64,000 bases of DNA from Naegleria gruberi (Eukaryota), in the NCBI GenBank assembly GCA_000004985.1, contig GG738907.1; one strand, 5' to 3'. Position 1 is the first letter of the stretch. Each line of letters starts with the position of its first letter. The position numbers and the translations under genes were made by a program. The notes below the pieces were generated by a model. It saw only the letters and a list, made by a program, of their open reading frames with translations, made no database searches and was not told where the DNA came from. Positions 1 to 31,449 of this stretch are shown here, one piece after another.

Positions 1-2603
1 TTTTGTACTTGTTCTTCATATTCAATTAGAGATTCAGATTCTTTCTGATAAATTTGTTCTAATTTTTCTGATTGTTTTGAATATTCATCTTTATAATTTT
101 TATAATATTGTAATTTAACTTCTAATTCTAATTCACATGTAATTAAACGATCAGATATTTCTTTTAATTTTTCAGAATTAACATGTTTTTGTAATAAATT
201 TTTAGATAATATCATATCATTAGATTTAATTAATTTAACATGTTCAATTCTCTTATTTTCAATTTTTAATTTTGATTTACCAAATAATTTTTCATTTTTT
301 AATTCTAATTGTTCAATATTTAATGTTGTTTCTGCTTCCATTTCATCTCTTTGTAATTGTGAATTAAAACTAAATGTTAATTTAACTTGTTGTGTTTTAA
401 TAAATGTATTCATTATAAATGTATATTTACCAATACTATTAGATGTAATTGAACTTAATTTTAATAATTGATTAGAAGGTGAACTTGATTCAACATTTGA
501 ATCATTTTTATCTTTAATTTGACTAAATGCTAAATATATAGCAAATGATTCTCTAGCAATTCTATTACGTTCTTCTTCTTCTATAGAAGAATTAGATGAA
601 TCTAATTGAGAGGATGATGAATCATTTAATGATGATGATGATGAATTATTATTATTACCAAATATATTACTACTACTACTATTATTGGATGAATTATTTG
701 AATTATTTGAATTAGATAGATGAATTATTAATAGATGGTACAATTAATAACATGTCATTAAATAAATAAATATTATAAAAACCAAATAATCTCTTCTTTT
801 CAATTTCTCTTGAAGATTCAACATGAATAGAATTGAAACAAGTTGTAAATTTTCTATGTGCTTGAAGTAAATTATTAAATCTTCCTTTCATTTTCTCTTG
901 TAAATCAAAAACAATTTTATCATTTTCAGCAATTCTTTTAGATTCATTTAAATTTTCAGCAACTTGATTAACAATTAATAAAGCTTGTTCTAATAATTGA
1001 TAATCTATATGTGTTTCATCTGTTCTTCTTATTACTTCTTGTAATAACATTCTAATACGTGGTACTCTTTGAACTGGACATACTAAATAAGATAAAAAAG
1101 TTAAACCACAACATTCTGACATTTCATGTGTTTTTGTTAGAAATTGTGAAAATGATTTTGATGTTTTTTCTAATTTTTCAACCTTTTCAGCAACACTATC
1201 AAAATTATTAATATATTTAGAATACATTCTAAAAAAAGGAGCAAATGATTTAAATATATTACCAATTAAAATTGGATTTGTTGGCCATTTATCAATTTCT
1301 TTTTTTAAATCATTCATTAATAATTGACTTGCTTGCATTATATTAGGTAATTCACCAAATATATCATTTATATCTGAAAGTGATAAAGTTGGTTTCTTTT
1401 TAGTTTGTGCTTCATTTAGTAATGGATCCATAAATAATTGTTTACATGTTAATAATGAATTAAAATAAGTTTGTTCTGTTGTTAATATTTCTAATAAGGC
1501 TGCTTTTCTTAATCTTGCTTGTCTTACTTGTGGTGATTTACTTATATATTCTTTAAATTGCTTTTTATAGTAATATTTTAATAATTTTAATGATATTAAT
1601 TCTTTAATTTCATTATTTATATTTATATTATTATTATTATTAGAAATATTATTATTTATAATATTATTATTTGTAATATTATTATTTATAGATGAATTAA
1701 TTGATAATTTAGGTGATATTATAGTAGTACTTGTATTATTAAAAGAAGGAGGAGGTAAATCAAGTGAAGGTAAATCCATAGAAGGAAGTGCAGTTAATGA
1801 ATTTAAACGATTAGATGATGATGAGGATGATGTTGTTGTTGCTTTTATAAATGAATTAGTACGATCATGTAAAATAATATCATCCTCATCTGAATCTATA
1901 TCTTCATCATCTTCATATTGACTTGTATCTCCACCATTATAATTATAACTATTACTATCATCAAATGTTGTNNNNNNNNNNNNNNNNNNNNNNNNNNNNN
2001 NNNNNNNNNNNNNNNNNNNNNNNNNNNNNNNNNNNNNNNNNNNNNNNNNNNNNNNNNNNNNNNNNNNNNNNNNNNNNNNNNNNNNNNNNNNNNNNNNGTT
2101 CGGAATTTAGAAAATAAAGTAGTAACAGATCGAGTCTTCTTTTTATGAAGTGAAGAAGAAGATGAAGGTGAAATTAATTGTTGTACATCATTGGGTAAAT
2201 CTGAATATTCTACTTTTTTAAAATAGGTAGATGGTATTTCAAATAATTGATTATTTGATATCTCATTCACTTGATATCCATTATTATTATTATTATTGAT
2301 ATTGATATTGATATTTCTATATATAATGATGATGATGATTATTATGGAGATGACAATAATAATAATATTATTATTTAATAATGATGATGATGGTAATAAC
2401 ATTCATTACATTCATGAAAGATAATAATAATTATTATAATTTAAAGATAACACAAATTCATCTATTAAATAATAAATATAAATTTTAATAACATACTTGA
2501 TTAAATGTATAAAAGTACCCTTTGTTTTATAAATATTATTCTTATTATCAATAAAATCACTTGTTAATTGACCAAATTGATCATTTTCATCAAGTGATGA
2601 CAT
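1..2603 (-). CDS. RhoGEF (Dbl-homology) protein with C-terminal PH-like/coiled-coil region; 3' end runs off the window start and the 5' part is interrupted by an N-gap
   Basis: ORF 712..1779 (-) has a DH-domain signature (QARLRKAALLEILTTEQTYFNSLL...). The minus-strand frame across 1..711 is open to the window edge in a +1 frame relative to the upstream ORF and encodes a PH-like region (KYTFIMNTFIKTQQVKLTFSF...) followed by a coiled coil. This implies a small intron near 712..790, for which the only candidate donor I found is GTTATT. The ATG at 2603 is followed by a low-complexity Asn/Ile-rich region and a 126-nt N-run. 5' exon structure is unresolved. Confidence 0.65.
1972..2097. other. assembly gap (126 N)
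   Basis: Run of N in the sequence. Confidence 1.
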
Positions 2604-3250
2604 TTGTCAGTTGTTTTTTTATTAAATGTCAAAATGATATCAATGGTCATGTCTTCCTTCTCTCGATTTCATGGTCGCTTCGAATGACTTGAAAATTGAT
2701 CGAACGTCACTCTTTCATTTTAGAAAGTTTATTACTATTTTATATGGTCATTGATTTGGTCAACTATATTCTTAATTATCCCAATTAGAATCATGATTGT
2801 ACACTTTATAATTGAATATTTATCATTTAATATTATAATTAATTGAATATAATATTGAGAAAACATTTAATATTTATATATTTCAAAATTAAATTCAAAG
2901 TCATTTCAATTAAAGAAATTTGAGAATCTAATAAATACGATATCTCTCTCCATACATACAATTCGAGATACATTCCATTTATATATTTCAAAAGATCAAC
3001 AATAACAACACATAAAACAATAACAATACAACTAATTATAACTGAAAATAAGAAATTTAAACTACTACTATTATCACTTGAATACCAATTTAAAAAATCA
3101 AAGAAAAATACACTCAGTAATGAATTAATTACTACAACAACAATATCATCATCATCATTAAATAATTCATCATCATCAACTACTACTTTATCATCTAATA
3201 AATCACAATCAATTAATATAAATAATAGTGATAATAATAATGATAATAAT

Positions 3251-5065
3251 ATGATGATAATGGATTGGATAAATAAGAATGAAAATATTAATGATATTTA
3301 TTCACCCATTTCATCTCCTCTTTCTCCTCCTAAAATATTATTTTTATTAAATAATCAAAATAATCAAAATAATCAATTTAATAATAAATCATCTACATCA
3401 ACTTGTATTAATTTATTTAATAATATAAATAATAGTGATAATAATAATAATAATAATAATTCAAATAATAATAATATAATTGAATATTATAAAAAAATAA
3501 TTGATAAAATTGATCAATTTGATTTTGGAATATTAAATACTATATTATCATATTATTTATTAATAATTGATGATTGGTTTATTTGTAATTATTTATTTAA
3601 TAATAATAATAATTATATTAATTTATTTTATGGAAAGAAATTTAATTTTATTTTTCAATTATTTCCTTCTATTTATATTAATATTGAAAATAAATATTTT
3701 ATTAATTATTTAATTGATTTAAAACCAATTATAAATAATTGTGAATTTATTATTTTTAATAATTTAGATCAATTAAATAATTTTAATTTTAAAAAATTAA
3801 AAAGTTTTTCATATTTAAATAATTATAATATTAATAATTTAAATATTCAACATGTATTTGGTAATTCATTAAATACTTTACAAAATTTAACATTTACTTG
3901 TAATTTTAATAATATTAAAAAATTAAAATTAAATTGTAAAATGTTAGAAGATTTAGATTTTAATTCAATTAAAAATATAGAAATATTAACAATACATTTA
4001 AAATATCCAGTTATAGAAGAAAATAATTTAAATTTAATAAATTATTTAAAAAATCAAAAATGTAAAGAATTAAATTTAAATTTTAACATGACAAAATATT
4101 TAAAATATTTTAATGAATTTAATTTAATTCAAACATTATCAATACCATATTGTTTATTTAATGAAAAATTTAATTGGAAAATATTTAAATATTTAAATAA
4201 TTTAACTGTAAATTTTAATGAAAAAATTCAATTTGAAAATTTAATTTCTCAAATTGGAAATCAATTAAAAAAATTATATTTAATTTTAGATATAGATGAA
4301 TTTACAAATGATTCATTTATTAATTTTAATAAATTTTGTATTAATTTAGAAGAATTACAATTAAGTGAAATTAATTTGCATATTTCAAATGAAATTAAAA
4401 ATTCAAATTCAATTACTATATTTGGATGTGATACAATTATAGCAGATTTAATAATTTTAACAAATATTTTATCAATTAAAAATATTTATAGATTAGATTT
4501 AAAAATTAATTCAATTTATTCATTTTTAGAATTAAATTTAAATAATTTATATTTAGAAATTCAATATTTTTATAATTTAAATTCTAATTATCAATTAAAA
4601 AAATATAATAATATAAATAAAATACAAAAATTAGAATTAATTTATAAATATAATGAAAATATTAATGATTTAACATTTTTAACATTTACAAATATAGAAG
4701 AATTAATAATTAAATATGGAATATTAAATACATCTTTATTTAGTCAATTATTATCATGTAATAATATTAAAAAAATAACATTTTATAAAACTGATTTAAA
4801 TAATATTATTTTTAATAAGTTAATTAAATTTAAATTTATTAATTTTATTCAATGTAATTTAAATTTAAATTTTTTAAAAACATTTAAAGAATATTATGAT
4901 AATATTAAATTAAATAATGATATAATATTAGATGGATATTCATTATATTTAACAAATACATTAAATATAAATATTAAACAAAATAATTTAATTGATTTAT
5001 TTAATGAAATTAATTATAAACATGAATATTTAAATAATAATAATAATAATTGTATATTACAATAA
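3251..5065 (+). CDS. Asn-rich leucine-rich-repeat-like hypothetical protein (604 aa)
   Basis: Single long ORF. The first in-frame ATG is 3251, although the frame is open upstream to 2924. Repeated LxxLxLxxN-type segments (LNLNFNMTKYLKYFNEFNLIQTLSIPY...). Extreme AAT/AAA codon bias and poly-N tracts. Confidence 0.5.
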   Translation: MMIMDWINKNENINDIYSPISSPLSPPKILFLLNNQNNQNNQFNNKSSTSTCINLFNNINNSDNNNNNNNSNNNNIIEYYKKIIDKIDQFDFGILNTILSYYLLIIDDWFICNYLFNNNNNYINLFYGKKFNFIFQLFPSIYINIENKYFINYLIDLKPIINNCEFIIFNNLDQLNNFNFKKLKSFSYLNNYNINNLNIQHVFGNSLNTLQNLTFTCNFNNIKKLKLNCKMLEDLDFNSIKNIEILTIHLKYPVIEENNLNLINYLKNQKCKELNLNFNMTKYLKYFNEFNLIQTLSIPYCLFNEKFNWKIFKYLNNLTVNFNEKIQFENLISQIGNQLKKLYLILDIDEFTNDSFINFNKFCINLEELQLSEINLHISNEIKNSNSITIFGCDTIIADLIILTNILSIKNIYRLDLKINSIYSFLELNLNNLYLEIQYFYNLNSNYQLKKYNNINKIQKLELIYKYNENINDLTFLTFTNIEELIIKYGILNTSLFSQLLSCNNIKKITFYKTDLNNIIFNKLIKFKFINFIQCNLNLNFLKTFKEYYDNIKLNNDIILDGYSLYLTNTLNINIKQNNLIDLFNEINYKHEYLNNNNNNCILQ

Positions 5066-5523
5066 AATTATGTTTTATTGCATTTTTTTTGGAATTATTC
5101 AATTAGAAGTGTTTTACAATAAAAATATTAGATGTGATAATGTTTCGATCGTGTGACCAGACTCTCTCTTCATAATCTTGGATAAGTTGACAATCACTGA
5201 TTTCCCAATTCTTCTTTGATTCTACTGGTAGGCACATTTCTAATCATATATTCACAAAGAAAATGGGATGTAATATTGAACTTGTTGCAATTGAACAAAA
5301 TCCACCTTCTCTTTTCACTTGAGACTCAAATTAAATTTGGAGAAATTGTCGTAAAAGATTTGAATTTCTTACCAAAGAGCCTTTTTTTTGGAAAGGGTGA
5401 TGGTGTTGTGGGTGTCTTGTGTTGCCTTAGCAGTTAAAAAAGTGCAAACTAGCTTTTTTGTTAACTATTTTTATTACAAATATGTGAAAATTGTTTGTTA
5501 GTGAGAGGTGATCAGGATTAAAT

Positions 5524-6057
5524 TTAGAGAGCGAAAACACCCAAAACAACAGCCAAAGCAAACATAGCCAAAGCACTGACTTGATTGATAACACCAGAAT
5601 TGTAACAGTTAGTTGTTGGATAAGTGGAACAATCAGGTTGTTTGGTACCAAGTTTAGCATAATCGGAAGCACATTCAGTATTCAACTTTTCACAGAAGGA
5701 CTTGCAGACATTGATTCCATAGTTTGAAGTACTGATGAATTGTTGATTGCTTGGTGAACATTCAGCACATATTTGTTGCTTGTAATATTGACGACATGAA
5801 GATGAAACACCAAGATTAGAATAAACAGTGTCAGAATTTTTCTTACTTGTAACTTGACCAGCAGAACAACATGAGGAAGTCTTGAGAGAAGTTCCACAGA
5901 AATCATCACAATCAGTACAAGCAGTTGCATTGTATGAAATGTTTCTATTCAAACATGTTTGAGCAGAAACAACAGTGTTGAAGAATGTGACCAAGAGGAG
6001 AGTGCAAGCAATGACACATAAGAATTTGACGGACATTTTGATTTGTTTTTTTTTCAA
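5524..6057 (-). CDS. small secreted Cys-rich protein with a predicted GPI-anchor signal (177 aa)
   Basis: N-terminal signal peptide (MKKKQIKMSVKFLCVIACTLLLVTFFNTVVSA). About 16 Cys in CxxC and CC patterns. C-terminal hydrophobic tail after small residues (NSGVINQVSALAMFALAVVLGVFAL), typical of a GPI attachment signal. Confidence 0.6.
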   Translation of the reverse strand: MKKKQIKMSVKFLCVIACTLLLVTFFNTVVSAQTCLNRNISYNATACTDCDDFCGTSLKTSSCCSAGQVTSKKNSDTVYSNLGVSSSCRQYYKQQICAECSPSNQQFISTSNYGINVCKSFCEKLNTECASDYAKLGTKQPDCSTYPTTNCYNSGVINQVSALAMFALAVVLGVFAL

Positions 6058-6657
6058 TTCCTCAACAAGATGTTTTACCCTTAATAAATTTAAGGCAAAT
6101 CATCCAACCCAACCAGTTGATTATTACAATTTGTTTTGTTGTGGGATTTCTTGTGCGAACATTTCTGCTCCGATTTCTAACAAATTTAATCAAAGCCTTT
6201 ATTATTGTGTGATGTGATGATGGATACAAACAATATTCAACAAGTATACCAAATATCACAATATTCATATCGATTTGACTAAAATTGAACGAGTATTTAC
6301 TCTGTAAATATGATGACATTCTGTTTTCCACTTTTTTAAACTACCACTACGACCACATCCTTTACGACTATTCTTTGAACGTGTCATCAAAGATCTCTTT
6401 TTTTTGTATTATTAATAATTGACATGAAGTATGAAGGCTTCATGTTGAAATGGAATGTTATCAAATAAATATTTATTATTATAATTTTATTGTCTTAATT
6501 GAACACCAATTTTCAGATTTGTTGGTTTACTTGTGAGTGAAGTTTCAATTCCGATCGGATCCTTAATTTCATCATTCAATAATATAAAATTACATTTTTG
6601 TAATAATCTAATAATAACTGATGTAATTTCCATTTGTGCAAATTTATATCCCTTTTT

Positions 6658-8365
6658 TTAATAATTTGAATTTTGATATAAATACATTACAATAATATTT
6701 AAAAATATTAAACTTACAATACATCTTCTATTTCCAGAACTAAATGGAATCCATTGATGATTATTTTGTACAAATTCCTTTTCTTGTTGTGTTTTAAATC
6801 TGTTAGGATTAAATTCTTGTGGATTTTCCCACAATTTTTCATCTCTATTAACATCAATTAAATTAATATTAATTTGAGTTCCTTTTGGAATTTCATATTC
6901 ACCAATGATGGTATTTTTTTTAGCAACTATTTTATCAACTTCAAACACAGGTGGATGAATACGTAAACATTCCATGACAACACTTGTAATATATTCAAAT
7001 TTATCAAAATCATTATATGTAAATTCATTATTTCCTAATAGGGTATCAATTTCATGTTGACATTCTTTTTGAATATTTACATGTTTAGAAAGTTCATACA
7101 TTAACCATTGAAGTGATGTTGAACTTGATAAAAATAATTTAAAAATATATTAAATAAATTAAATATAGTATTAAATATATTATTGTAAAGTATTAATAAA
7201 TATATTAAATTTGTAAATATAAAACATACCTTGTATCATAACCAGCCAATGAAAACACAAGTGCATTACTCTTCAATTCACCTCTAGTTAAAACTGAATC
7301 TTGTAAATTAGCTCTAACAAGTAAACTTAATAAATCTTTTCTTTCATCCCAATCAATTTCATTACTATTAAATGTACTAACACTATTAGAATCATTATTA
7401 GAATTAATATTATTAGAATTATTATTAGATGATTGTTTAATTTCATTAATTCTTTCATCAATCATATTATCAATTGATTGACCAATATAATCCAATGCTT
7501 TACCAACACTTGTTAAATTAAGTAATAATTTATAGAGAAGAGGATATTCATCTTGTTGAACAAATCTTCTTAATACTAATGCTCTTCTCCAAACAATTTC
7601 CATATTTGAAACAAATTCATTTCCCTTATTCATTTCATTGGTATAAAGTTGATTCTTTTTTGAATCAGAATCTAAAAATGTTGGTACTGTTTTCATACCA
7701 AATCCACCTGCTAATAATACTGTCATGGTTAATTCAGAGAAATCTTCAATATTAATTTGAACTAGCTGTTGATTATTACCATTTTTAGAAATATTACTAT
7801 TAATAGAAATAGTATTATTATTTAACAATTTAATCCATCTTTCAATTAACATATCACTTGCTTGATTTGAAATTTGACAAACCAATTCTAAATTTTTAGC
7901 AGAAAAAGCAGGTGAAACAATTCGATGATGTTTCTTCCAAATTTCATGATTTGGAGCTGATAATAAATTTTCACCATAAATTCTAAAAGCCTGATAAACA
8001 TAATTAGGTTTATCAAAAGTATTAGCTTTTGTAATATTAACTTGTTTAATTAAATCTCTATCCAATAACCAAATCATATTTTGATTACACATTGATAATC
8101 TAAAGATTTTACCTTCACCTCCAAATTGGAAAGATAATTCTCTAACTTTATCAGCTGTTGTAAAATTACAATAATTTGCAATGAGTGGAATGTGAAATGG
8201 TGTATAAATTATTTGCCAATAACCTGGTATATGTTTTACTAATTTTACATTTTTATAAACTCTATATAATATATTAAATATATAAAATATTAAAATGACA
8301 AGTATGGCAATTAAAAGTGTATTGATAATACTGTATGGCAGTGTTGTTGTTGTTGTAGCTGACAT
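6658..8365 (-). CDS. cytochrome P450 monooxygenase, 2 exons (7230..8365 and 6658..7123; 106-bp GTATGT..AG intron)
   Basis: Exon 1 has an N-terminal membrane anchor (LIAILVILIFYIF). The I-helix AGYDTSSTSLQW is restored by splicing. Exon 2 has ECLRIHPPV and the heme-binding motif FSSGNRRCIG. Confidence 0.85.
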
Positions 8366-8759
8366 TTTTTTTTAATGGATGATGAACCTGCTTGCTAATG
8401 ATTGATGCACTTCATTGTGATCACAATAATAATGAGAATTGTTTTTCATTTTGTAATGAGATGAGTTGTTTGTGAATTGGTCTCTTCATTAAATTGCACA
8501 AATGGAGAATTTACCACTATTGATTGTATGACTATTTGGGAGTAAAAATCATTTTACAAATATTTCAATTATTTTACTGTAAATTGTAGTCAATACAATG
8601 GAATGAACAAATAAATTTGTTTTATTAAGGTGTTTTGGAAAATCCCTTCAATTTTTTCTCAAGAATCGAATGAGTTTCTATCCGAAAGTGTGTTAATTTT
8701 TAATGTCTACCGATTGGAATCTATCAAACACAACTATTAATATTCTATCATACCATTCA

Positions 8760-8846
8760 ACTAATTCAAAGAATAAATGAATTGATTACTTACAGTAGAA
8801 TTGAATGAAGAAACTCTATTAGAATGTTGATCATCATGTTTTTTTG
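8760..8846 (+). repeat. degenerate copy C of a ~100-nt repeat family ending in an oligo-T run
   Basis: Shares ttcaaagaat[a/g]aa..tg and gaa[t/a]gaagaaactc..aat..tg blocks with copies A and B. Ends in the T-run catgtttttttg (8838..8845). Confidence 0.4.
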
Positions 8847-9511
8847 AATCTTTATAATCCAATGGCTATGGACTTTCAATAATTGAGAATCTCAAGCAGT
8901 GGAGAATCATAAGAGTAGTAGAAGTGGAGAGTGAAACAACTCGGCAAACAACTTAATATATCCAAAAATGGAAATTAAGATGGCTACCTATGATTGTGGT
9001 TAGAGGACAAATAGGGATAATGGAATAGGTTTGGAGAATCCTTAAACTTGTTATCCTGATCATAATTTGAGTTATGTACCAAAAGAGAAGATACCTAGGT
9101 ATTAACACAATATAGAACCTAACTCCTTGAGACAAAAAAGGAATTTAAATTGATTCGTGCGAGTGAAAACAGTTCATTGATTCTGAAATAAGCTCAAATG
9201 TGCTGTTCGCATGTTTAAAGTGGGGTTCCTTCAATAATTCCATCCAGTTATTAGGAGTAGCACTCGGGCTTAACTCTATTCGAAATTAATAAGAACATCA
9301 ACCAGAAGGTAAAGAAGAATTTTGTTTTATTATCAAGTTGAGTTCAACCTCATAAAGAATAATAGTAAAGTTTTTAAAGAGTGAAATGACCTTCAAAATA
9401 GCAGGTTCTCTTTGTTTCTCTCTTTCATAATTTTAAATCAGATGCAAATTAGCATGAAGTTTGACTTTGCAATGTAATAAAGGTAATAAATTGCTAGTGC
9501 GCAGTTTCATT

Positions 9512-21817: not shown

Positions 21818-23754
21818 TCATTCTTCAAGCTTGGGGAATTTCATTTCCCTTATCATTTGAAACATCAAATCTCTATAAACTTCTCCTTTTCTAATAGTAG
21901 ATTTGTAAGAAAACATCCAGACGTGGTGTTTTTTCTCACTTCTCTGATCATCAACTCTATGAATTATAACAACTAATTCATACATTACACTCTCCAAAGA
22001 GACGGAATGTGCAACCTGTAGCCAATTTACGTGAATGGTTTTTGTATCCTTCTTGATTGCAACAACTTCTGGAATTGTTTCGTCAGTATCTTCTTGATTA
22101 CTGTTGCTAGTACTTGTTGATAGTGTATTATTTTGTAAATCGAATGATCTCAAATCGCTAATAATCTCAACATTCTGATCCATAATCAGACTTTTAACAT
22201 ACTGGGCAACATCGTGTTCAGACATTTCGCTCGGGGTATTTTCAGGTGACAATAATTGAGATATCTCAAATCGGTCAATGTGAACATCATTTGGGTCGGT
22301 CGATGTACTTGATTTGAATTCTAATGGACTTGTAAAAACAATGGAATCACTTGTCTTATTTTCTTGCCATCCAAATGGAACTCTTAACCACAAATATTCA
22401 AATAGATCACTGTAGAGAACATTTAACATTTCAAATCCTTGCACAAACTCTGAATTGGTTACAATTTGATGAGCTATGGATTGATTCTTCAATGCACAAT
22501 TTGAAATATATCTTACAACAATTGCACTCGAACTACCAATATCCACAACACAAACATATTGAAATAGAGTATTTCCAGATTCAACATATTGAAATAGGAA
22601 TGTATAATAGTAATATCCCAATTTTGTAGAACTTTCTAATGGAATATCAGTGAAATTCTTATACTTGCTCATACTATTCACATAAACTTCTCTCTGATCA
22701 GCCAACCCAACTTCCAACTCAATCTTTAAACAATCTAATCGATGTTCTGGATCATAAATTTCAGTTGGTGATCGACACAACACTCTCATCTCATCTATTT
22801 TTTCTAATCTCCATCCAATTGGATAAAACAAATTTCCAATATATTTAATTCTTTCACTTTTTTGAAAATTAGTTTTAGAAATTACAGTTGAATGAACACT
22901 TTCTAATCCATCAATGTTTTGAAATGTAGTATTGTTATTATTATTCATATGAATGTTATTAATTTTAGAATTCTTTTCATCTTGTGAATGAAAAGCTTCA
23001 ACTAATTCTTCATTTGGATAATCACAAAGTGTTGAAAATTTCATTTGAACCACTAAATTTAATTCTCCATGTTGTACATTTTCCAATTTTAGATTAAATT
23101 TTCCATTATCAGAATTTAAAACATCAATAATTGAAAGTTTACAATTTCCACAAAAATCATCTTTGAAAAAATCTTTATCCCAAACTTGAATTTCAATAAA
23201 ATCCAATTTATCCTTATTAATACAATGAATATTTTCATTATTTGGTGTTGAAATTGTAATATTTTGTAATTTTGCTAAATTATTTGGCATTTTGTAATGT
23301 GATTTTTTCACTTGTAAATTAAATTCATCTCCCAAATGACCAATATTATACGCACAAGGTAATAATTGTTTTTGTAAAGTATTAATAGTATTATTGTAAT
23401 GATTATTTAATTGTGCATCAAGTATCCACATGAAAGTTTCATCATATTTCGGATTTAGATTTTTAAATTTAATGCTCGACATTAAAGATATTCCTCCATA
23501 ACTAATAATTACATACTACATTTAAATAGTTAAATAATTTAAATATTTTGTAAAAAACTTACAGGATCACTGAGTCCATTTTCATCCATCGGAATAATAT
23601 TTGAACCATGTTTTAATTTAACAACTAATCTATCATAATGTTCAACATTTAATTGTACTTTTTGATGTTTTGACATTTTTTTGATTTTTTTAGACAGTTG
23701 ACTTTCAAATCCAACATTATTGATTGTTACTCTCCCAAAAAGATCCATTTTCAA
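21818..23754 (-). CDS. C2-domain protein, 2 exons (23553..23754 and 21818..23505)
   Basis: The C2 core ..HGSNIIPMDENGLSDP|YVIISYGGI..NLNPKYDETFMW.. is split by a 47-bp GTAAGT..TAG intron. Further on is IEIQVWDKDFFKDDFCGNCKLSI. The C-terminal 400 aa are unassigned. Confidence 0.65.
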
Positions 23755-23770
23755 GAATTATTTATAAAGT

Positions 23771-25179
23771 TTACAATAAAACAATCAAACAAATAATCAT
23801 TACAATAACCATCAATGATTGCATAATATTACAATTTGCCAAACTTGCAATTCTCCACTTTTCATCTAAAACCCATTGATTCATTCCATTCATTGAACTT
23901 CTCATTGCAACTGTCAAATTTCCAAATGCCCAAGTTTTCCAACTGTCATCTTGAGGATAGAAATATTCACCAACTTTTGAATTAACAAATGGACAAAATT
24001 GTGCACTTCTATCTGGTAAATTTTGATAAAATCTACAATTCAATTGCATTAAAAAGTAATTTTGATAGGCATCTTGTGGAAATGTTCCAATTTCCCATGC
24101 AGTTGGAACGATGGTTAAATTGGCCTCACTTCCACTCATTAAGGCATGATCCTTAATGAAATGACCAAAGTATTTACCACTTGGGAATGGAAATAAATTG
24201 TCGTGAATGTATTCATTCTTGAGGAGGTATTGCTTAGCGAAGGGGATCCATTCAGGATCGAACATGGCATACACATTTCCATACTCGCCAACAGCACTGT
24301 GCAAGTCAATATATAAAACCTTTCTACTCTTGGTATATTCGGAGGAGTAACCCTTCAAGAGTTGATTCAAAATGATTTTGACTTGCTTGGCAGTCCATTC
24401 TTCAGTGGTTCCTGCGTAGGCAATTCCAATTTGTCTGTGAATTTGTCCAATGACTGATGATTGTGTGAATGCTGGAAGACCGACCTTTGCCAATAGAGTG
24501 TAAAAGTAGTTGACTGCTTGTGCTTGAACTGTGTCCAAGTGAAGATGTGAAATATTCATACCATCAATGAATTGTTCCAATAAAACGTTCTTTGAAATTT
24601 CCCAACCAGGTGCATCAATGTAATGTTCATTCAGATTCTTCAACATGTCGACATTGTTTTCATTTTCCTTTGTTGCATAACTGGCTCCGTATGGATTTAA
24701 CATGTGAATGTGAACAGGATAGGTGTTATCAGGAAGATTGAATTGATACTTGGTGTCGTTCTTAATCATGGCAATTTGAATTGGACTACCAACAAATCCC
24801 TCTTGTCCATGGACACCAGAGAATGTTAGGAAAACATTGGATTCAGCCTTATTCTTCAACATGTTGGCACGTTCTTCATGGAAGCATGCAGACATGTACA
24901 ATTTTTCATTATTAAGACCAAGAATGGAAGGAAGCTCATACTCTGAATACTTGTAACCACTTGTTGCTTGACAAACTTGTTTAAACTTTTGATCGGCTTC
25001 AACATAGTTCGATGAAAAGTAGTCGAGTTAATAAGTTTGGCTGTTGTTACTAATGACAACATGATGGTCATAGCCATGAGAAAGGCCATGCATGCAGTAA
25101 AAGTTGTAGCTGAAACTAACTTGTTAGTGATGATACCTCTTGAGAAGGACATGTTTTTTTCTTCAATGAAAAATATCAT
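23771..25179 (-). CDS. zinc hydrolase of the M14 / succinylglutamate-desuccinylase–aspartoacylase type (HGQE motif) with signal peptide and C-terminal hydrophobic tail; frame break near 24990..25010
   Basis: The main ORF has TFSGVHGQEGFVG (Zn-binding H-x-x-E context) and ends in a hydrophobic tail. The signal-peptide exon (MAFLMAMTIMLSLVTTAKL) is in a frame offset by one base. The two frames meet at aactcgactacttttcat with no GT..AG option. Confidence 0.5.
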
Positions 25180-25735
25180 TGCAGGCCCAGTTGAGCTTTT
25201 TAAATGTTTATCATGGCTGTTTTAAGACTGTACTAACTCTTTGCTGTAGTGTTGATGTATTACAGTTCCCTTTGTAAAAAAGGATGAATGGTCATTGAAG
25301 ATAACATGCTTAATTGGAAGGTGTTACTTTTCATCTAATTGAACTTGGAACTCTATATCTTACTACACACTTATTGAGGCAAATGATGAATTTGGTAGAA
25401 ATTACAAATTGCCAGTAAAGGAACATAATTCCCTTTCGTTGGTATGTCTCTAATTTCACCACCTCCATCTTTCTCCTCAAGAGAAAGAGAGCAAACTTAA
25501 TTAGCTTTCATCAATTCCGATTTTTATCATCATAGGAACAATGTTCAAACTGTTCAGGTATCATAATGGCTTTTTCTTTTTGTGGTTAAAGATTTCAAAA
25601 TGTCCATTCCTCAAAGAATTGACTCAACGAAGTTTTTATTCAAATACATATTTAATCCATTATTATTATGATTGATTCATTGATTGGTTGTTGATTCATA
25701 CATATTGAATCATTTTCAGCATCTAATTGAATCAA

Positions 25736-26260
25736 TTAGAAACAATTAGTCAATACTTTAATATCTTGAGCAGCATCTGGTTGAGAACCATCATTGGCCT
25801 CTCTCATCAACTCTGGTAAATTACCAACAATTGTAACATGTAATTCATCACCTTTAACAGCATATTCATTCAAATTACAACCATTGCTTTGAGTAGATGA
25901 TGGATCATGTTTAATGTGGAGAATCATCTTTTTCAATTCCATAAAAGCTTCCTTACAATCTGGATCTTTACAGAATTGAACTGGTAAATCTTCACACAAA
26001 TAGGTAATTCTTCTAGAGAATTTCAAATAGAGAATGACATTCTCTTTGGCACTCAATTCTTCTCTTCTGGCTTTCCATTTGAGATCTTCTGGAAGAGATA
26101 GAATTGATTCCCAATCAATAAGAAGGATCATGTTTGGATTGACCTTTTGCAATTCTTTAATCTTGTCAGTAATCTTGTAACTGAACAAATCACGAGCTAA
26201 TTTCTTGAAAGCCAAACCACCATTCTTTGGCAAGAATTCTTCTTCATAATTTACCAACAT
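25736..26260 (-). CDS. hypothetical protein (174 aa)
   Basis: Clean ORF with normal amino-acid composition, on the strand consistent with its neighbours. No family recognised. Confidence 0.4.
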   Translation of the reverse strand: MLVNYEEEFLPKNGGLAFKKLARDLFSYKITDKIKELQKVNPNMILLIDWESILSLPEDLKWKARREELSAKENVILYLKFSRRITYLCEDLPVQFCKDPDCKEAFMELKKMILHIKHDPSSTQSNGCNLNEYAVKGDELHVTIVGNLPELMREANDGSQPDAAQDIKVLTNCF

Positions 26261-26590
26261 TTTTTAAACTTGTTTTTTAATTGTTGTAAAGTGAGCAGAC
26301 TGAATGCTGTCAATATTTAAACTGTTTTAACCTCCGCATGTTTAACATTTATCCATGTGTGTTGATTGAATGGTTGTTGGTTTTTCCATTGGATTTTGGA
26401 AAGGGATAATTATTGGAATCGGCTAAAGTTGGAGTCCACCCTTGACTTGATTACTAATGGGAAAATCATGGATTTGTCCATTCTGGGAAGTTGATATGCT
26501 AAGGTTGACTAGAATTTAAACAATTCATTTCGAAATGCATACTTACATTTCATTACAATTGAATTACAAATACATGGAAATTATACAATG

Positions 26591-27693
26591 CTATAATAAA
26601 CAATTTTTGGATTGTTTCATTCTTTTCTTCATTTGCTTTTTAGAAATTTCAATAAATTTAGAGTCATATTTTACAATCTCTTTTAAGAGAGTTAGATTAT
26701 CATTAGATCCATATCTATTTCGTCTTACACATTCTTCAAATAGCAATTTAGTATTTTCTCCTGTTTTGGCACTGGATGTAAAAATTGCAGTATTTTTCAA
26801 TTGATTTCTTTCAATAATCGAATTAATCAAATTTGTATATTTCTCAATCACTTGCTCTCTATTCGAATCGTTCAATAAATCAACCTTATTTAATGCAAAT
26901 ATAACTGGAAAATAATTAATTTCCCTACACTTCAATTTAATTACTTGTTCCACCACCCTTTCTGATTGTTCCACTGTCTTTTCATCCACAACATCACAAA
27001 CATTAATAAACGTATCTCCTGATCTCATGTAATAATCTGTCATTGCCTTAATAAGTAATATTAATAAACACATTTAGAATTTAAAACACGTACAGAATAA
27101 TCTTCAATGCCAGCAGGATCTATCACATCTATCATGACAGGTAAATTATCAACTTGTAATAGTTTTCTATATGGTTCATCTGTAGTTGGATCGTAGAATT
27201 CTATAAAATGTCCATGGAAGCAATTGATTGTAATGGAAGATTTACCTGTTCCCAATGTAGAGATGAGTATTAATTTCAAATATTATTAATACTAACCTAC
27301 TCCTCCTGCTCCAATCATTACTATCTTTGTTTCTTCAACTTTATTCCAAGGTTGTTTGCAAATATTGAATTTGATGAAAATAGCAATCAATACTTTTCTC
27401 TTCAATTCTCCCTTTACAATTTCATCTTTCAATAAGCTAAATTCATTTTCCAATAGTGGATTATATCCAATACAAGTTTCCCATACTTTCCACCAAAATT
27501 TGTCGAAATAAATAGTCATCTCTGGCATGGAAGAAATTTTCCTATTTAATGATTGAAAATTGAGAATAAATTTAATATGTATTTTAATTTCTTGTGATCG
27601 TTGCTGAATGGACAAAAGATTCGTTCCGAATTCTAAAATATGTTGAAGAATTTCAGAGGGAAGTGATAAAAATTGAGTTGAGCAGTTTTGCAT
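26591..27693 (-). CDS. Ras-family small GTPase with an N-terminal F-box-like extension, Q61I substitution and C-terminal polybasic-CAAX, 3 exons (27297..27693, 27094..27245, 26591..27046)
   Basis: Exon 1 LSLPSEILQHILEFGTNLL (F-box-like) ... KIVMIGAGGVG. The 51-bp intron GTTAGT..AACAG joins to KSSITINCF..YDPTTDEPYRK..IDVIDPAGIEDYS. The 47-bp intron GTACGT..TTAAG joins to AMTDYYMRSGDTF..ALNKVDL..TSSAKTGEN..KKQMKKRMKQSKNCLL. Confidence 0.7.
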
Positions 27694-27819
27694 TTTTTTT
27701 CAAATTTTCAAAAAAAATAGTTTTTTGAGTTGGTTGGGGAAGTGAGGTGTATTGGAATAATGTTTGAAAATTGAAAATAATGATTTGGGTAGATAATTAT
27801 TAATAAAATTAAAATAACA

Positions 27820-27890
27820 GGGGGCGAGGGGGAATCGAACCCCCGGCCACAGCTTTGGAGGCTGCGATGTTACCATTACACCACCGCCCC
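27820..27890 (-). tRNA. tRNA-Trp (anticodon CCA), 71 nt
   Basis: Reverse complement GGGGCGG TG GTGT AATGGTA ACAT C GCAGC CTCCAAA GCTGT GGCC GGGGG TTCGATT CCCCC TCGCCCC C. Full cloverleaf with GU pairs at 10-25, 27-43 and 7-66. U33, anticodon CCA and T-loop TTCGATT are present. Very similar to yeast tRNA-Trp. Confidence 0.85.
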
Positions 27891-28257
27891 TGTTGAAATA
27901 ATTTATTATTTTCCATCATTCACAATATCTTAAAATAACGTCTATTTTACATTTCACTTGCTTTTTGAGATTTGTTTCAAACTCTTGCACTACAATATTT
28001 TTCTGCCACTTTCTTATTAAACGACTTGAGGGGGCGCTGTGCTTATTTTCCAGCCAAAATTTTTGTAATGATGAGCCATACTGTTGTTGTCGTTTGGTGG
28101 GATGAAATATTGTGGTGGATCTATTATATCCAAGTTTACTTAAAAAAAATGGAAGAACCAGCAACAACACTCACTATGATTGATCTTCATCCAATCTCTC
28201 CGAATTTATTTACAAAATTGAAAGAAAAATTTAAATCACCTTCTCTTGTGGAATTTT

Positions 28258-28330
28258 CCCATACAAATTGATGCAATTTCTAATAGTTCCCATATGTTCT
28301 CATACAAATTGATGCAATTTCTAATAGTTC
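28258..28330 (+). repeat. tandem duplication of a 34-bp unit immediately upstream of the 28338 start codon
   Basis: ttcccatacaaattgatgcaatttctaatagttc and ttctcatacaaattgatgcaatttctaatagttc, separated by ccatatg. The second copy ends 8 bp before the ATG. Confidence 0.6.
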
Positions 28331-28337
28331 TTTTAAT

Positions 28338-29072
28338 ATGGCAATTTGTAGGGAATTTAATTATTTAGTTACTGGTTCTCATGACTCTTTAGAAATCTAT
28401 GATTTGATCACTCATCAACCAATTCAAGAAACAATTCATTTTAGTGAAGGAATTTATGGAATTGATTTTGAAAGGGAAAATTCAGGACAGTGGAACTTGA
28501 TACTCTCCACCTGGAATAATTATTTTGTAAAATATGATTTCAATAGAATATTGAGTGAAAAGAGTTTTGGTGAACCAATTTTTAAAGTTCCAATTAAATT
28601 TGCTTGGGCTGTCAGATGTTTTAAAACTGAACTTTATGTCATTGATTATGATTCAAAAATATTTGTATTCGATTTGAAATCAGGCTTAGAAAAAACAGAG
28701 ATTACTGTTGGATTGGAAGATGAAATGGTGGATATGGTTTTCACACCAGAAGAGGAAATGATTGTTTGTGGAAGTAATCAGTGGCACATTCTCAAATTTA
28801 ATGAAAATTCTTCTTGTTGGGAAAAGATTAAAAGCTATTCGAATGAAAATGGACCAGTGAGAATTAATAGATGTTTTGGTGTTTGGTATGAAAGAAAGAC
28901 GAAACTAATTTATTTGACCGATAATGGGGGCAAAATATTCATATTCGATAGAGAACTCAATCTTGTGAAGGAAATCAAAGTATCTGGACTCTATGAGATT
29001 GTAATTAATGAACAGAATGGAGAAATGTTCGTTTGTGATAAAGATAAAAATCAACTAATCATTTACAAATAA
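28338..29072 (+). CDS. hypothetical protein, probably beta-propeller-like (244 aa)
   Basis: Clean ORF. Repeated beta-strand-rich segments (LYVIDYDSKIFVFDL.., LIYLTDNGGKIFIFD.., GEMFVCDKDKNQLIIY) suggest NHL/WD-like blades. Flanked by the inverted tRNA-Trp copies. Confidence 0.5.
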   Translation: MAICREFNYLVTGSHDSLEIYDLITHQPIQETIHFSEGIYGIDFERENSGQWNLILSTWNNYFVKYDFNRILSEKSFGEPIFKVPIKFAWAVRCFKTELYVIDYDSKIFVFDLKSGLEKTEITVGLEDEMVDMVFTPEEEMIVCGSNQWHILKFNENSSCWEKIKSYSNENGPVRINRCFGVWYERKTKLIYLTDNGGKIFIFDRELNLVKEIKVSGLYEIVINEQNGEMFVCDKDKNQLIIYK

Positions 29073-29274
29073 CACTTAACAATCCTCTGATAGAAGCTTA
29101 GATAATGCTAGGAGTTGTTTCTCAACAAGATAGTTCAGAGTAACCAGAAGAAAATCAAACCAGAGAATGATCTTAACAGACCTTAATACTTGATATTATT
29201 TAACTGCTTCTAAAAAATGTCCACTTGTGCACTGCATTAAATATGATATTGTGAATAAATGAATAAGTTCAACA

Positions 29275-29337
29275 GGGGCGGTGGTGTAATGGTAACATCC
29301 AAAGCTGTGGCCGGGGGTTCGATTCCCCCTCGCCCCC
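29275..29337 (+). pseudogene. truncated tRNA-Trp copy (63 nt) lacking 8 nt (GCAGCCTC) of the 5' anticodon stem and loop
   Basis: Identical to the tRNA-Trp at 27820..27890 except for an internal 8-nt deletion that removes anticodon-stem positions 27-31 and C32-U33-C34. Flanks (ttcaaca upstream, tgttattttaatttta downstream) are also shared in inverted orientation. Confidence 0.7.
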
Positions 29338-29429
29338 TGTTATTTTAATTTTACTCACTTAACTTTTAATGGAACAACTCGGCTTTTCAGTCTTGCAAAT
29401 AGGAACTTTCGGAATTAAAATTAAAAAAA

Positions 29430-30228
29430 ATGATCAGAAAGTGGGAATTGAATGATGGCAGGATTATGCAAATTGAACAAGATTTGGACATTGTAAATAA
29501 AGAATTCGGAGCCATTGTATGGGATTGTGCATTGTATGTAAATGATGATCAATGTAAAATTGACCTTTTCCAATATAACTATATTTTGATCAATTATTTG
29601 AAAATACAAAAAGGGTATTGTCTAAATATTTGGAAAATGAAAAAGTATTTCCGAAAGGCTTTTTTAAAGGAAAAACAATTTTAGGTAAATAATATCTGAT
29701 TTGTTTAAGAATAATTAAAAATCAAAAGACTTGGGATCGGGAACTGGATTTATTGGAATTTTATTAATGATCAAAGGAGCAACTGTTCACTTTACTGATC
29801 GTCAAGTATTAATTCCACTCATTGAAAAGAATATCGATTTAAATTGTAAGATTGTTGAACAGGAACAAGAAGATAATGATATTGATGAAAAAGCTCCAAT
29901 TTTAGCAAATCAATTTAAATGTTTTGAGTATTTATGGGGTGAACCAAATGAAATTGTGGAAAATACTGAATATGATTTTGTAATTGGATGTGATTGTATT
30001 TATGAATCAAAAGATATGTGGATGCCACTCTCAAAAGCATTACATGAACAGTTGGCAAGATCAAAGAATATTATTCTAGCTCATGAATTGAGAAGTCAAA
30101 AAGATTTCTCCTTCTGGCCTCATATTCAAGAAACATTTGAAGTTGAAAGAGTACCTACAGAATTATTGGACGAATTTTGGAGATGTGAAGCAATAAGAAT
30201 ATTCTATTTGACATTTAAATCAAATTGA
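29430..30228 (+). CDS. METTL21-family protein-lysine methyltransferase (Methyltransf_16), 3 exons (29430..29533, 29614..29684, 29729..30228)
   Basis: GAIVWDCAL|VLSKYLENEKVFPKGFFKGKTIL|DLGSGTGFIGILLMIKGATVHFTDR..CDCIYE.. matches the family consensus VWDAALVL..YLE...F.GK.VLELG.GTG. Introns are 80 bp (GTATGT..AAG) and 44 bp (GTAAAT..AAG). Confidence 0.75.
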
Positions 30229-30576
30229 AGTGATTTTTAATCTTCTCCCTATAAATGAAATCTTTCCACAAATATTTAGTCTTTTTGATTTCGAAATTTG
30301 AATTTTTAACATGGAGAGTTTTGTAACTTTCCTAAGTAACTAGCCCAAATTTGTGTGTTTGAATTTAACAATGAGTTGAGACTAGTACTGAATAAAAATT
30401 TCCAATCCACACAAACCACTTCATGGAACTTATTTCATCGGTGATAAATGGGATAATTGTCTAATTGTCAATAAAATTTTAAATTCTGGATATTTCAAAT
30501 AAATTAGACATAAAATATCCAATGTTTTTAAAGAATTTGAAAGTTAGTGCCAAGATTGAATACTTTTATTAAGGGG

Positions 30577-31449
30577 TTAACATCTTTGACTACACTTATT
30601 GAGTGGTGATTTTGAATCATGGAATAGGAAATGCATGGTTGAGAAGATGGAAAGTGCACTTTCGTTTTTCATGCATTCCTCTGAACAAAAGTTTTTACAA
30701 AAGAGAGCTGGGACGAAAGGTCCTTCCCATTGACCAAGTGGCCAACACTTTTGGAAATGATGAGTAAAGAATAAAATAGCAGAGACAAAACCATCATTAC
30801 CATACATTGGAACAACTGGCAAGAGAGTCAAACTACTCTTTGTCATTGTCGGATGATTCAGTAAATTGAGCCCATAATGCCTTCCCATCCCCGTTAGACA
30901 AGATCCTTTCGTATAGGATTTTTGTTGAGCTTGTGTTTCTGTGAGTGGAATCTCAACAGGTCTTTGACTATTTGGTGCTAAAATCAAACGATCACCAATT
31001 AAACCTCCAGAATGATCAAAAGCTCCAGAACATGCAAAGGAGGGATCACGAGTTGCAATTTCAATTTGATATTCTTGGTGTCCAACTTTGTGCCAGTACA
31101 ATTCTTGAGTGTTTTCATGAATTCTTGCTCCAAAACCAGATAATTGACCTGCTTTGGTGTAATAGACAACAACTCGATCATTGATAAAGCCATAGCCGAG
31201 ACCAGGGACGCATGCACCGTTATCAGTTTCGATTGGTTTAGACCACTTGGATGTGTACATGGCAGTTGTCAAATTCAATGGAATAGGACTCTTACTGAAG
31301 AAGGTGTGTTGCAAACGATCACCCAATCCAATAAATGAACCAGATGATTGTTCTGAAAGTACAACAGAAACAATCAAGACGAATATCAGAAGAATCACCT
31401 TGCACATTTTTTTCAATAAGATAACGATTCTCAAAATGAGTAGGTCCAA
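30577..31449 (-). CDS. secreted hypothetical protein (signal peptide, Cys-rich C-terminus)
   Basis: ORF with MCKVILLIFVLIVSVVLSEQ signal-like N-terminus (second Met). About 12 Cys. No family recognised. Confidence 0.45.
   Translation of the reverse strand: MDLLILRIVILLKKMCKVILLIFVLIVSVVLSEQSSGSFIGLGDRLQHTFFSKSPIPLNLTTAMYTSKWSKPIETDNGACVPGLGYGFINDRVVVYYTKAGQLSGFGARIHENTQELYWHKVGHQEYQIEIATRDPSFACSGAFDHSGGLIGDRLILAPNSQRPVEIPLTETQAQQKSYTKGSCLTGMGRHYGLNLLNHPTMTKSSLTLLPVVPMYGNDGFVSAILFFTHHFQKCWPLGQWEGPFVPALFCKNFCSEECMKNESALSIFSTMHFLFHDSKSPLNKCSQRC

Follow-up and report, generated by a model that had tools for sequence, protein, structure and literature searches.

A tRNA-Trp(CCA) gene and its likely local inverted duplicate, a probable pseudogene, at a lineage-specific synteny break in Naegleria gruberi

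Features of the locus

The stretch of Naegleria gruberi DNA analysed here (64 kb, referred to as the window) contains a tRNA-Trp(CCA) gene and, 1384 nt away and in inverted orientation, a shortened copy of the same gene. A beta-propeller gene lies between the two copies, a GTPase gene is located to the left and a methyltransferase gene to the right. The features of the locus, together with the evidence for each of them, are listed in the order of their coordinates.

26591..27693, minus strand: left neighbour, Ras-family GTPase (P0012) in three exons; ORFs, 98% identity to N. gruberi P0012
27804..27819, minus strand: 3' flank of the intact tRNA-Trp, common to both copies; TGTTATTTTAATTTTA in the tRNA sense
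27820..27890, minus strand: intact tRNA-Trp(CCA), 71 nt; ARAGORN and Rfam RF00005
27891..27932, minus strand: 5' flank of the intact tRNA-Trp, common to both copies; alignment
28149..28271, plus strand: orphaned N-terminal coding remnant (MEEPATTLTMIDLHPISPNLFTKLKEKFKSPSLVEFSHTN, then a stop); tblastn of P0002-P0005
28253..28330, plus strand: tandem duplication, two 37-nt copies 41 bp apart; repeat search
28338..29072, plus strand: 244-aa ORF, beta-propeller; 100% identity to the N. gruberi 'predicted protein' P0001
29242..29274, plus strand: 5' flank of the deleted tRNA-Trp copy, common to both copies; alignment
29275..29337, plus strand: deleted tRNA-Trp copy, 63 nt, probable pseudogene; alignment to the intact gene
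29338..29353, plus strand: 3' flank of the deleted copy with T runs, common to both copies; alignment
29430..30228, plus strand: right neighbour, Methyltransf_16 lysine methyltransferase (P0006) with introns; ORFs and Pfam

An earlier note on this DNA had described the sequence at 27820..27890 as a canonical 71-nt tRNA-Trp on the minus strand, and two programs agree: ARAGORN calls it as Trp(cca), and it matches Rfam RF00005 over the full length with 57.5 bits. When its fold was evaluated, the canonical cloverleaf with the anticodon CCA came to -28.6 kcal/mol. Judging from consensus matches, the gene carries a predicted internal Pol III promoter, consisting of an A box (TGGTGTAATGG, from position 8) and a B box (GGTTCGATTCC, from position 50), and a T-run terminator. 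The 3' flank TGTTATTTTAATTTTA includes two T4 runs of the type that terminates Pol III transcription, and a TTTT run is found 6-9 nt downstream of the 3' end of the gene. The base following the acceptor stem is C rather than A73, the usual discriminator base in eukaryotic tRNA-Trp.

Measured from the 3' end of each tRNA copy, the start codon of the GTPase gene is 127 nt downstream of the intact tRNA and that of the methyltransferase gene 93 nt downstream of the deleted copy. The GTPase has a long N-terminal extension and a clear Ras domain (Pfam Ras, 1e-24), and among its named relatives, only N. gruberi paralogues are closer to it than generic Ras proteins.

The two tRNA-Trp copies and their flanks

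Alignment of the extracted strings showed that the copy on the plus strand is the same tRNA minus 8 nt, as had been noted earlier: all 63 bases are identical to those of the intact gene (63/63), and the alignment contains a single 8-nt gap. The missing nucleotides are GCAGCCTC or, equally, CGCAGCCT (tRNA positions 27-34 or 26-33), the two gap placements being equivalent because C flanks the gap on both sides. The deletion takes one strand of the anticodon stem, the 5' one, together with the first bases of the loop. The anticodon arm is thus destroyed, in line with the original description, and the deleted copy therefore cannot decode. The acceptor stem, D arm, T arm, A box, B box and T-run terminator are all retained, with the gap between the A and B boxes shortened from 31 nt in the intact gene to 23 nt. 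RF00005 still recognizes the deleted copy, whose 41.4 bits exceed the gathering score of 29, but the alignment is possible only if 13 model positions are skipped, with 4 nt in their place; ARAGORN makes no tRNA call at 29275..29337. The junction created by the deletion, ATC/CAAAG, occurs once in the 64-kb window and in none of 100 shuffles. Taken together, the copy is probably nonfunctional and best called a tRNA pseudogene.

The homology between the two copies extends beyond the tRNA itself. The 3' flanks TGTTATTTTAATTTTA are identical at all 16 positions (27804-27819 versus 29338-29353), after which the homology on this side ends, save for a TTAA beyond a 5-nt indel. On the 5' side, the TTCAACA adjoining the tRNA is shared completely (7/7), and the first 17 nt match at 14 positions. 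Farther out, a 9-nt indel is followed by TA(A/T)GATATTGTGAAT, matching at 14 of 15 positions and including a 12-mer match; in the intact copy, the flank beyond this indel includes TAAGATATTGTGAAT. The local score of the 5' flank was reached anywhere in 200 x 200 nt by 10 of 500 shuffles. In a BLASTN search of positions 23600-30600 against the window, the sole matching pair was 27804-27907 and 29353-29258 (104 columns, 89.4% identity, E 8e-35). The inverted arms accordingly measure about 95-105 bp each and comprise the tRNA gene with short flanks. From the alignments, the putative duplicated unit can be put at ~110-130 bp, made up of the tRNA with ~40 nt upstream and 16 nt downstream of it.

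An alternative considered at the outset was a plain pair of tRNA genes, with flank identity stopping at the tRNA ends. Instead, the homology runs past both ends, and the copies therefore represent one duplicated unit rather than two independent tRNA genes. The proposal of a segmental inversion-duplication seeded at a tRNA gene is, in its essentials, supported by the evidence. We also asked if the shared flanks could be generic tRNA flank signals and rejected this idea, as the flanks of the tRNA-Tyr in this window are different. Likewise, a retroposed tRNA copy or a tRNA-derived SINE was rejected, because the homology reaches to about -43 upstream of the tRNA, beyond the expected Pol III start. 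Neither an A-rich or other 3' tail nor flanking direct repeats were found around the tRNA copies.

It could be argued that the 8-nt deletion is an artefact of assembly or sequencing and that both inverted tRNA-Trp genes at the locus are in reality intact, given that inverted repeats can confuse assemblers. However, we found no positive evidence for such an artefact, and the window agrees exactly with the gene models published for N. gruberi. Moreover, the flanks of the deleted copy carry substitutions and indels of their own, and the two arms were therefore assembled as distinct sequences. The N. gruberi assembly derives from Sanger reads, in which it is unusual for 8 nt to be lost cleanly outside repetitive sequence. 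An artefact thus appears highly improbable.

The enclosed gene and the surrounding gene order

The 244-aa ORF between the tRNA copies had been described as beta-propeller-like, and structure prediction supports this description. The AF2 model (pLDDT 91.1, pTM 0.88) suggests a complete six-bladed NHL/WD40-like beta-propeller, and a Foldseek search with this model recovered NHL and WD40 propellers, the best match being the NHL domain of TRIM71 (E 3e-10). All Pfam matches of the ORF are under their cut-offs. Its propeller paralogues are 50-85% identical to it, and an HMM search gave 81 matches. Among the 10 matches that were looked up, 8 are N. gruberi-named, either directly or via a cluster member, and the remaining 2 are Logan/ENA sequences without an N. 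gruberi name. The ORF belongs to a large host family, expanded in N. gruberi to dozens of members on many scaffolds. Like the propeller family, the GTPase family is an N. gruberi expansion.

The region just upstream of the ORF preserves traces of a longer gene. The remnant at 28149..28271 matches the N-terminal extension of 300-aa paralogues and is in frame with the 244-aa ORF. With P0002-P0005 as queries, tblastn produced a one-frame alignment running from 28149 or 28152 to 29069, with three in-frame stops within a 33-nt net insertion. The same region contains the tandem copies 28253-28289 and 28294-28330, which are 95% identical. The 41-bp tandem duplication carries the stops that sever the N-terminal extension from the propeller ORF, and at 28269-28290 the sequence offers no suitable GT..AG pair by which splicing could take these stops out. 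A tandem repeat preceding the ORF had been recognized before as a 34-bp unit. The repeat is indeed present, but its unit consists of 37-nt copies 41 bp apart. Its designation as a promoter repeat does not hold, considering that the region is coding in the paralogues and here contains three in-frame stops.

The position of this gene between two inverted arms had led to the suggestion of an element with tRNA-derived terminal inverted repeats that captured a gene. Such a cassette would be mobile and non-autonomous. Repeats of ~95-105 bp (27804-27907 and 29258-29353) do bracket a single gene, and a TTAA adjoins the left arm, with a second TTAA located 5 nt past the right arm. However, these do not amount to a clean target-site duplication: the outside sequence reads ...ATTATTAA up to the left arm and CTCACTTAAC from the right arm onwards, and only TTAA is common to the two sides, offset by 5 nt on the right. 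TTAA, moreover, is palindromic and common in DNA with a GC content of 31%. The segment encodes no transposase, all of its ORFs being accounted for, and there are no further copies of the arms or of the deleted junction in the 64-kb window. JGI metagenome contigs yielded no matches to the deleted junction and none to either form of the Trp core. Furthermore, the supposed cargo is a host paralogue, a member of the same family scattered over many scaffolds. With no target-site duplication, transposase or extra copies in the window or the JGI metagenomes, the cassette can be given hardly any credence. The argument that tRNA genes are preferred integration sites of dictyostelid mobile elements is inapplicable, since the host is N. 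gruberi, a heterolobosean. The resemblance to the dictyostelid TRE and DGLT-A elements goes no further than the involvement of tRNA genes; Naegleria belongs to Discoba and is not a dictyostelid, and no retroelement ORFs or LTRs adjoin either tRNA copy.

To place the locus in an evolutionary context, we used the methyltransferase (P0006) as a synteny anchor and compared its surroundings with the corresponding loci of N. lovaniensis (L001), an ENA Naegleria contig (L002) and Willaertia magna (L003). No tRNA-Trp, propeller or GTPase homologue was found at any of these three methyltransferase loci; a tRNA-Glu(TTC) lies upstream of the methyltransferase in L001 and L002. Furthermore, the orientation of the methyltransferase relative to a block of C2, EF-hand and Arf genes is the reverse of that in N. 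lovaniensis and L002. The 5.8-kb interval 23652-29430 is restricted to the N. gruberi lineage, and members of lineage-expanded gene families fill it. The comparison of synteny that the earlier note had recommended thus identifies the propeller gene as lineage-specific. Two further homologues are located on short contigs, neither with a tRNA: P0008, a methyltransferase homologue with 81% identity, on a 654-bp contig (L004), and P0015, an ENA homologue of the GTPase, on a 3-kb contig.

Origin and fate of the second copy

We consider it likely that the locus consists of a tRNA-Trp(CCA) gene and its local inverted duplicate, one of the copies being a pseudogene, at a lineage-specific synteny break. 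According to this scenario, a tRNA-Trp unit of ~110-130 bp would have been duplicated locally in inverted orientation, and an 8-bp deletion would then have inactivated the second copy, turning it into a pseudogene. The sequence relationships between the copies, the identity of the organism and the absence of the pair from the corresponding loci of relatives are observed directly; the loss of function of the deleted copy and the route of the duplication are inferred. A duplication of a larger unit, including the gene along with the tRNA, is unsupported: no second propeller remnant lies by the intact tRNA, where tblastn gave only noise-level matches.

Two candidate origins can be proposed for the inverted arrangement. 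The tRNA copies may have arisen first by inverted duplication, with a paralogue inserted between them afterwards. Alternatively, a small inversion may have occurred by a staggered break across the tRNA-Trp gene, with duplication of that gene by fill-in and religation of the 1.4-kb propeller segment in reverse. The latter model is a specific version of the origin step and no competitor to the pseudogene call. It would account for a duplicated unit that is short, sharply bounded, inverted and located exactly at both ends of one segment, and the inversion of the methyltransferase relative to the C2/EF-hand/Arf block of N. lovaniensis and L002 marks the locus as a point of rearrangement. However, that visible rearrangement involves a gene outside the repeat pair, none of the compared outgroup loci carries the propeller gene by which the orientation of the segment could be polarised, and other routes, such as the inverted duplication with paralogue insertion, reach the same end state. 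The staggered break is therefore a possible but rather doubtful version of events.

A staggered-break model has reportedly been put forward for the inverted duplications at Drosophila inversion breakpoints, and inverted pairs of tRNA genes are said to mark inversion and synteny breakpoints in yeasts; our search of the literature on tRNA-flanked inversions returned nothing directly citable. As at those breakpoints, a segment is bordered by oppositely oriented tRNA genes of the same isoacceptor, in a place where relatives differ in gene order. Unlike there, the visible rearrangement concerns the neighbouring methyltransferase, and no outgroup has the bracketed segment.

The local duplication with subsequent decay also has to account for the uneven divergence of the two copies. 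The flanks differ by 4 mismatches in 48 aligned nucleotides, plus several indels, as opposed to 0 of 63 in the tRNA body (Fisher test, p = 0.03). Such a pattern is expected if both copies were constrained until recently, but it would also be compatible with gene conversion that is still going on or with selection acting on the deleted copy. If only the dead copy drifted, 2.6 substitutions would be expected in the 63-nt body, with a probability of 0.07 of observing none. Selection on the deleted copy is thus not significant under this one-lineage model.

With promoter boxes, remaining arms and terminator intact, the deleted copy could, in principle, still be transcribed and processed. This raises the alternative that the 63-nt copy is a working tRNA-like element, for which three variants can be envisaged. 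A Pol III transcript might be cut by RNase P and RNase Z and CCA-tailed to yield a ~63-nt mascRNA-like RNA lacking the anticodon arm; RNase P cleavage at the copy might form the 3' end of the upstream propeller mRNA; or a TFIIIC-bound site, paired with the intact gene, might form half of an insulator shielding the enclosed young gene. The retention of the A and B boxes, acceptor stem, D arm, T arm and terminator, combined with full identity of the body next to diverged flanks, is consistent with such a role. The copy is also co-oriented with the upstream propeller ORF, whose stop codon is 200 nt upstream on the same strand, and with the downstream methyltransferase. Moreover, a CCA/UGG mini-hairpin can replace the anticodon arm, giving a four-arm form of -24.0 kcal/mol, but the fold of the deleted copy is not more stable than that of shuffled sequence (z = -0.8). 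The weak match to the Rfam mascRNA-menRNA family (RF01684, 24.3 bits) is far under the gathering score of 42.5 and reflects general tRNA likeness, because the intact tRNA reaches a similar score (23.6 bits). Furthermore, the zero substitutions fall short of significance if one lineage drifts, as calculated above, and the tRNA-like element is absent at the locus in N. lovaniensis, L002 and Willaertia. Like the MALAT1-type mascRNA, the copy combines intact acceptor and T arms with a stunted anticodon arm and lies downstream of a co-oriented Pol II gene; unlike mascRNA, it is no conserved element but was copied recently from a resident tRNA gene, to which it is still nearly identical. A working element of this kind is, in our judgement, unlikely.

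A probable pseudogene formed by local duplication agrees well with what has been reported for N. gruberi tRNA genes. The genome contains 924 tDNAs, 41 of which are pseudogenes, and 77 adjacent tDNA pairs within 1 kb; 12 pairs are of the same isoacceptor, 4 of these being antiparallel (Bermudez-Santana et al. 2010, PMC2888827, supplement 2). The same survey describes rapid turnover of tDNAs across eukaryotes, with positions shifting between related species, a behaviour mirrored here by the presence of Trp where N. lovaniensis has Glu. Similar to the surveyed pairs, the locus comprises an antiparallel same-isoacceptor pair, probably formed by local duplication, with one member degraded. It differs in that the copies are 1384 nt apart, past the 1-kb cluster cut-off, and have a protein gene between them. 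The tRNA-Trp pair thus looks like ordinary tRNA-gene duplication and decay, not like a mobile cassette.

Although of little weight alone, the pair provides a clean example of the birth and decay of tRNA genes in a genome with ~900 tRNA loci, located where synteny breaks in a lineage-specific manner and young paralogues fill the interval. Its importance would rise if the armless copy were expressed and conserved, or if the same arms bracketed other members of the propeller family.

Two tRNA-Trp copies in inverted orientation

The earlier note had described a tRNA-Trp(CCA) gene accompanied by an inverted copy lacking 8 nt, and this description was confirmed by ARAGORN, by the Rfam tRNA model (gathering score 29) and by direct alignment.

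Features of the locus, and a tRNA-Tyr gene elsewhere in the window
26591-27693, minus strand: Ras-family GTPase gene (P0012), left of the intact tRNA-Trp
27820-27890, minus strand: intact tRNA-Trp(CCA), the sole ARAGORN call in the 64-kb window; Rfam 57.5 bits, full length
28338-29072, plus strand: propeller gene, right of the intact tRNA-Trp, with a spacer given as 258 nt between them
29275-29337, plus strand: deleted tRNA-Trp copy, 200 nt past the propeller stop codon; Rfam 41.4 bits, no ARAGORN call
29430-30228, plus strand: Methyltransf_16 gene, starting 93 nt beyond the deleted copy
60535-60617, plus strand: tRNA-Tyr(GTA), its anticodon followed by a ~12-nt intron; Rfam 43.9 bits, missed by ARAGORN

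Both the alignment and the extracted strings showed that the deleted copy is identical to the intact gene over 63 nt, with a single 8-nt gap. The gap can be read as GCAGCCTC or equally as CGCAGCCT, because a C is present on each side of it, and covers tRNA positions 27-34 (or 26-33), so that the anticodon arm has lost its 5' stem strand and the first bases of its loop; to align the copy with the Rfam model, 13 anticodon-arm positions had to be replaced by 4 nt. The window contains a single instance of the deleted-junction sequence, and none of 100 shuffles has it. The discriminator base is C in both copies (27820, the last base of the intact gene, and 29337); A73 is the normal discriminator base of eukaryotic tRNA-Trp.

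The similarity between the arms extends past the tRNA ends, in agreement with the earlier proposal of an inverted duplication at a tRNA gene and contrary to a plain pair of tRNA genes, the outcome that the note had named as its refutation. The 3' flanks match at 16 of 16 nt (TGTTATTTTAATTTTA, including two T4 runs), and the 5' flanks share TTCAACA (7/7), match at 14 of the first 17 nt and, beyond a 9-nt indel, align in a second block (14/15) that includes the exact 12-mer GATATTGTGAAT. A BLASTN search of 23600-30600 against the whole window recovered this as the sole pair (27804-27907 / 29353-29258, E 8e-35). The flanks of the tRNA-Tyr gene are unrelated to those of tRNA-Trp, and the flanks common to the Trp arms are therefore not generic tRNA-gene signals. 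The arms are a single inverted duplication, with a unit length of roughly 110-130 bp.

The enclosed propeller gene and its neighbors

The 244-aa ORF between the arms is 100% identical to a Naegleria gruberi "predicted protein", and the flanking methyltransferase and GTPase are likewise N. gruberi proteins, which removes the premise for a dictyostelid comparison. The beta-propeller-like assignment was upheld by structure prediction: AlphaFold2 modeled a complete six-bladed propeller (pLDDT 91, pTM 0.88), for which the best Foldseek matches were TRIM71/Lin41 NHL domains and WD40 proteins (E ~3e-10). All Pfam matches of the ORF fell under threshold. A full HMM search yielded 81 relatives; of 10 looked up, 8 carry N. 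gruberi names (7 directly and 1 via a cluster member), and the remaining 2 are Logan and ENA sequences without names.

Of four close paralogues in N. gruberi, three are full-length (300-305 aa, 50-60% identical) and the other is represented by a 145-aa model (85% identical); all four have an N-terminal extension, of ~56 aa in the full-length proteins. When the paralogues were used in tblastn searches, the extension was found to be encoded from 28149 in the frame of the 244-aa ORF, with 28149-28268 cut off from the propeller by a net 33-nt insertion that contains three in-frame stops. This insertion coincides with two copies of a 37-nt repeat, 41 bp apart (28253-28330). Thus, what had been taken for a tandem promoter repeat is a 41-bp-period duplication within former coding sequence, which detaches the N-terminal extension from the propeller ORF. 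Relative to one paralogue, P0005, the net change is +33 nt with the frame kept, so that ~8 nt must have been lost in addition to the 41-nt gain. We found no intron in the sequence that could remove the in-frame stops; the annotated model begins at the next Met and still spans the entire propeller.

Among the named relatives of the GTPase, only N. gruberi paralogues (44-57% identical) are more similar to it than generic Ras proteins; its N-terminal extension of ~120 aa appears, as read by eye, to open with an F-box-like LPSEILQHILEF motif. At the far left, positions 1-8000 of the window are very AT-rich (GC 17-25% vs 30-37% elsewhere in the window) and include short AT-rich tandem repeats at 1620-1690 and 4794-4877.

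The locus in related amoebae

Three methyltransferase orthologues, each with 10 kb of flank, served for comparison: those of N. lovaniensis (L001) and Willaertia magna (L003), and one on an ENA Naegleria contig (L002). Neither tRNA-Trp nor a propeller homologue nor the GTPase was found near the methyltransferase in any of the three loci. Instead, a tRNA-Glu(TTC) precedes the methyltransferase in the same orientation in both L001 and L002 (9791-9863 and 7826-7897, respectively), separated from it by 138 nt in L001 and by 1.76 kb, with an intervening membrane-protein gene, in L002. The same upstream slot, occupied in N. gruberi by the deleted tRNA-Trp copy, thus contains a tRNA sequence in all three Naegleria, of another identity in N. 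gruberi, a pattern suggestive of tDNA turnover at a single intergenic site. The ~1.6 kb of DNA that L002 has in excess of N. lovaniensis between the tRNA-Glu and the methyltransferase (8264-9501) encodes, in two ORFs, a hydrophobic, multi-pass-looking protein with a weak ABC2_membrane match (E 9e-4), and is a second case at this locus of a gene inserted beside a tRNA gene.

Directly after the methyltransferase, L001 (10001-20931) and L002 (9656-19516) carry a C2 / EF-hand / Arf / 497-aa / WD40 block. The N. gruberi counterpart of this block, from 23652 down to 16570, is found on the opposite side of the methyltransferase and has the reverse orientation relative to that gene. In Willaertia, the orientation of a 986-aa WD40 gene relative to the methyltransferase is as in N. 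gruberi. The 5.8 kb between block and methyltransferase (23652-29430), comprising a DUF2817 ORF, a 174-aa ORF, the GTPase, the tRNA pair and the propeller gene, has no counterpart in the three loci; the DUF2817 ORF (376 aa, E 6e-32, 23771-24901, minus strand) likewise had no tblastx counterpart there. The pair thus sits at a synteny break, inside an insertion specific to this lineage.

Such a location agrees with published observations. The N. gruberi genome contains 924 tDNAs, 41 of them tRNAscan-SE pseudogenes, and 12 adjacent same-isoacceptor pairs, 4 of which are antiparallel; among related eukaryotes, the positions of tDNAs change rapidly (PMC2888827). Furthermore, N. gruberi has 626 gene families found in it alone, and its gene order has been described as less syntenic with that of N. 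fowleri than expected (PMC6125883).

Fate of the deleted copy and origin of the pair

Mismatches between the arms are confined to the flanks (4 of 48 aligned nt, vs 0 of 63 in the tRNA body; Fisher p = 0.03). Under a one-lineage model, in which the intact gene is constrained and substitutions are expected only in the lineage of the dead copy, ~2.6 substitutions would be expected in the tRNA body and the chance of none is 0.07; therefore, the data require neither selection nor gene conversion. Several small indels separate the arms, the 8-nt deletion among them. The predicted fold of the deleted copy is no better than that of shuffled sequence (z = -0.8), and tRNA-like folds with three or four arms are possible at predicted energies of -22.3 and -24.0 kcal/mol, vs a minimum of -26.8. 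The copy is probably a non-functional pseudogene. That it is a source of tRNA-like RNA is an unlikely and unsupported alternative. It retains both Pol III promoter boxes (A and B), the acceptor stem, the D and T arms and the terminator; the mascRNA model scored it (24.3 bits) no better than the real tRNA (23.6 bits), under a threshold of 42.5.

The locus is a tRNA-Trp gene with an inverted, deletion-inactivated duplicate, arranged around a young, partly damaged paralogue. The earlier alternative of a mobile cassette, a tRNA-derived terminal-inverted-repeat element with a captured gene, did not hold: a clean target-site duplication and a transposase were both lacking, and neither the 64-kb window nor JGI metagenome contigs contained further copies. 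The retro-copy reading did not hold either, because the homology reaches about -43 upstream of the tRNA. The inverted pair could have arisen when a staggered break in the tRNA gene accompanied a small inversion, which would yield the duplication, or when the gene was duplicated in inverted orientation and the propeller paralogue was later inserted between the copies. The analysis establishes the inverted duplicate with its short flanks, the disabling 8-bp deletion and the lineage-specific, rearranged location. The feature is real and of an ordinary kind, namely, a tRNA-gene duplicate inactivated by deletion in Naegleria gruberi.
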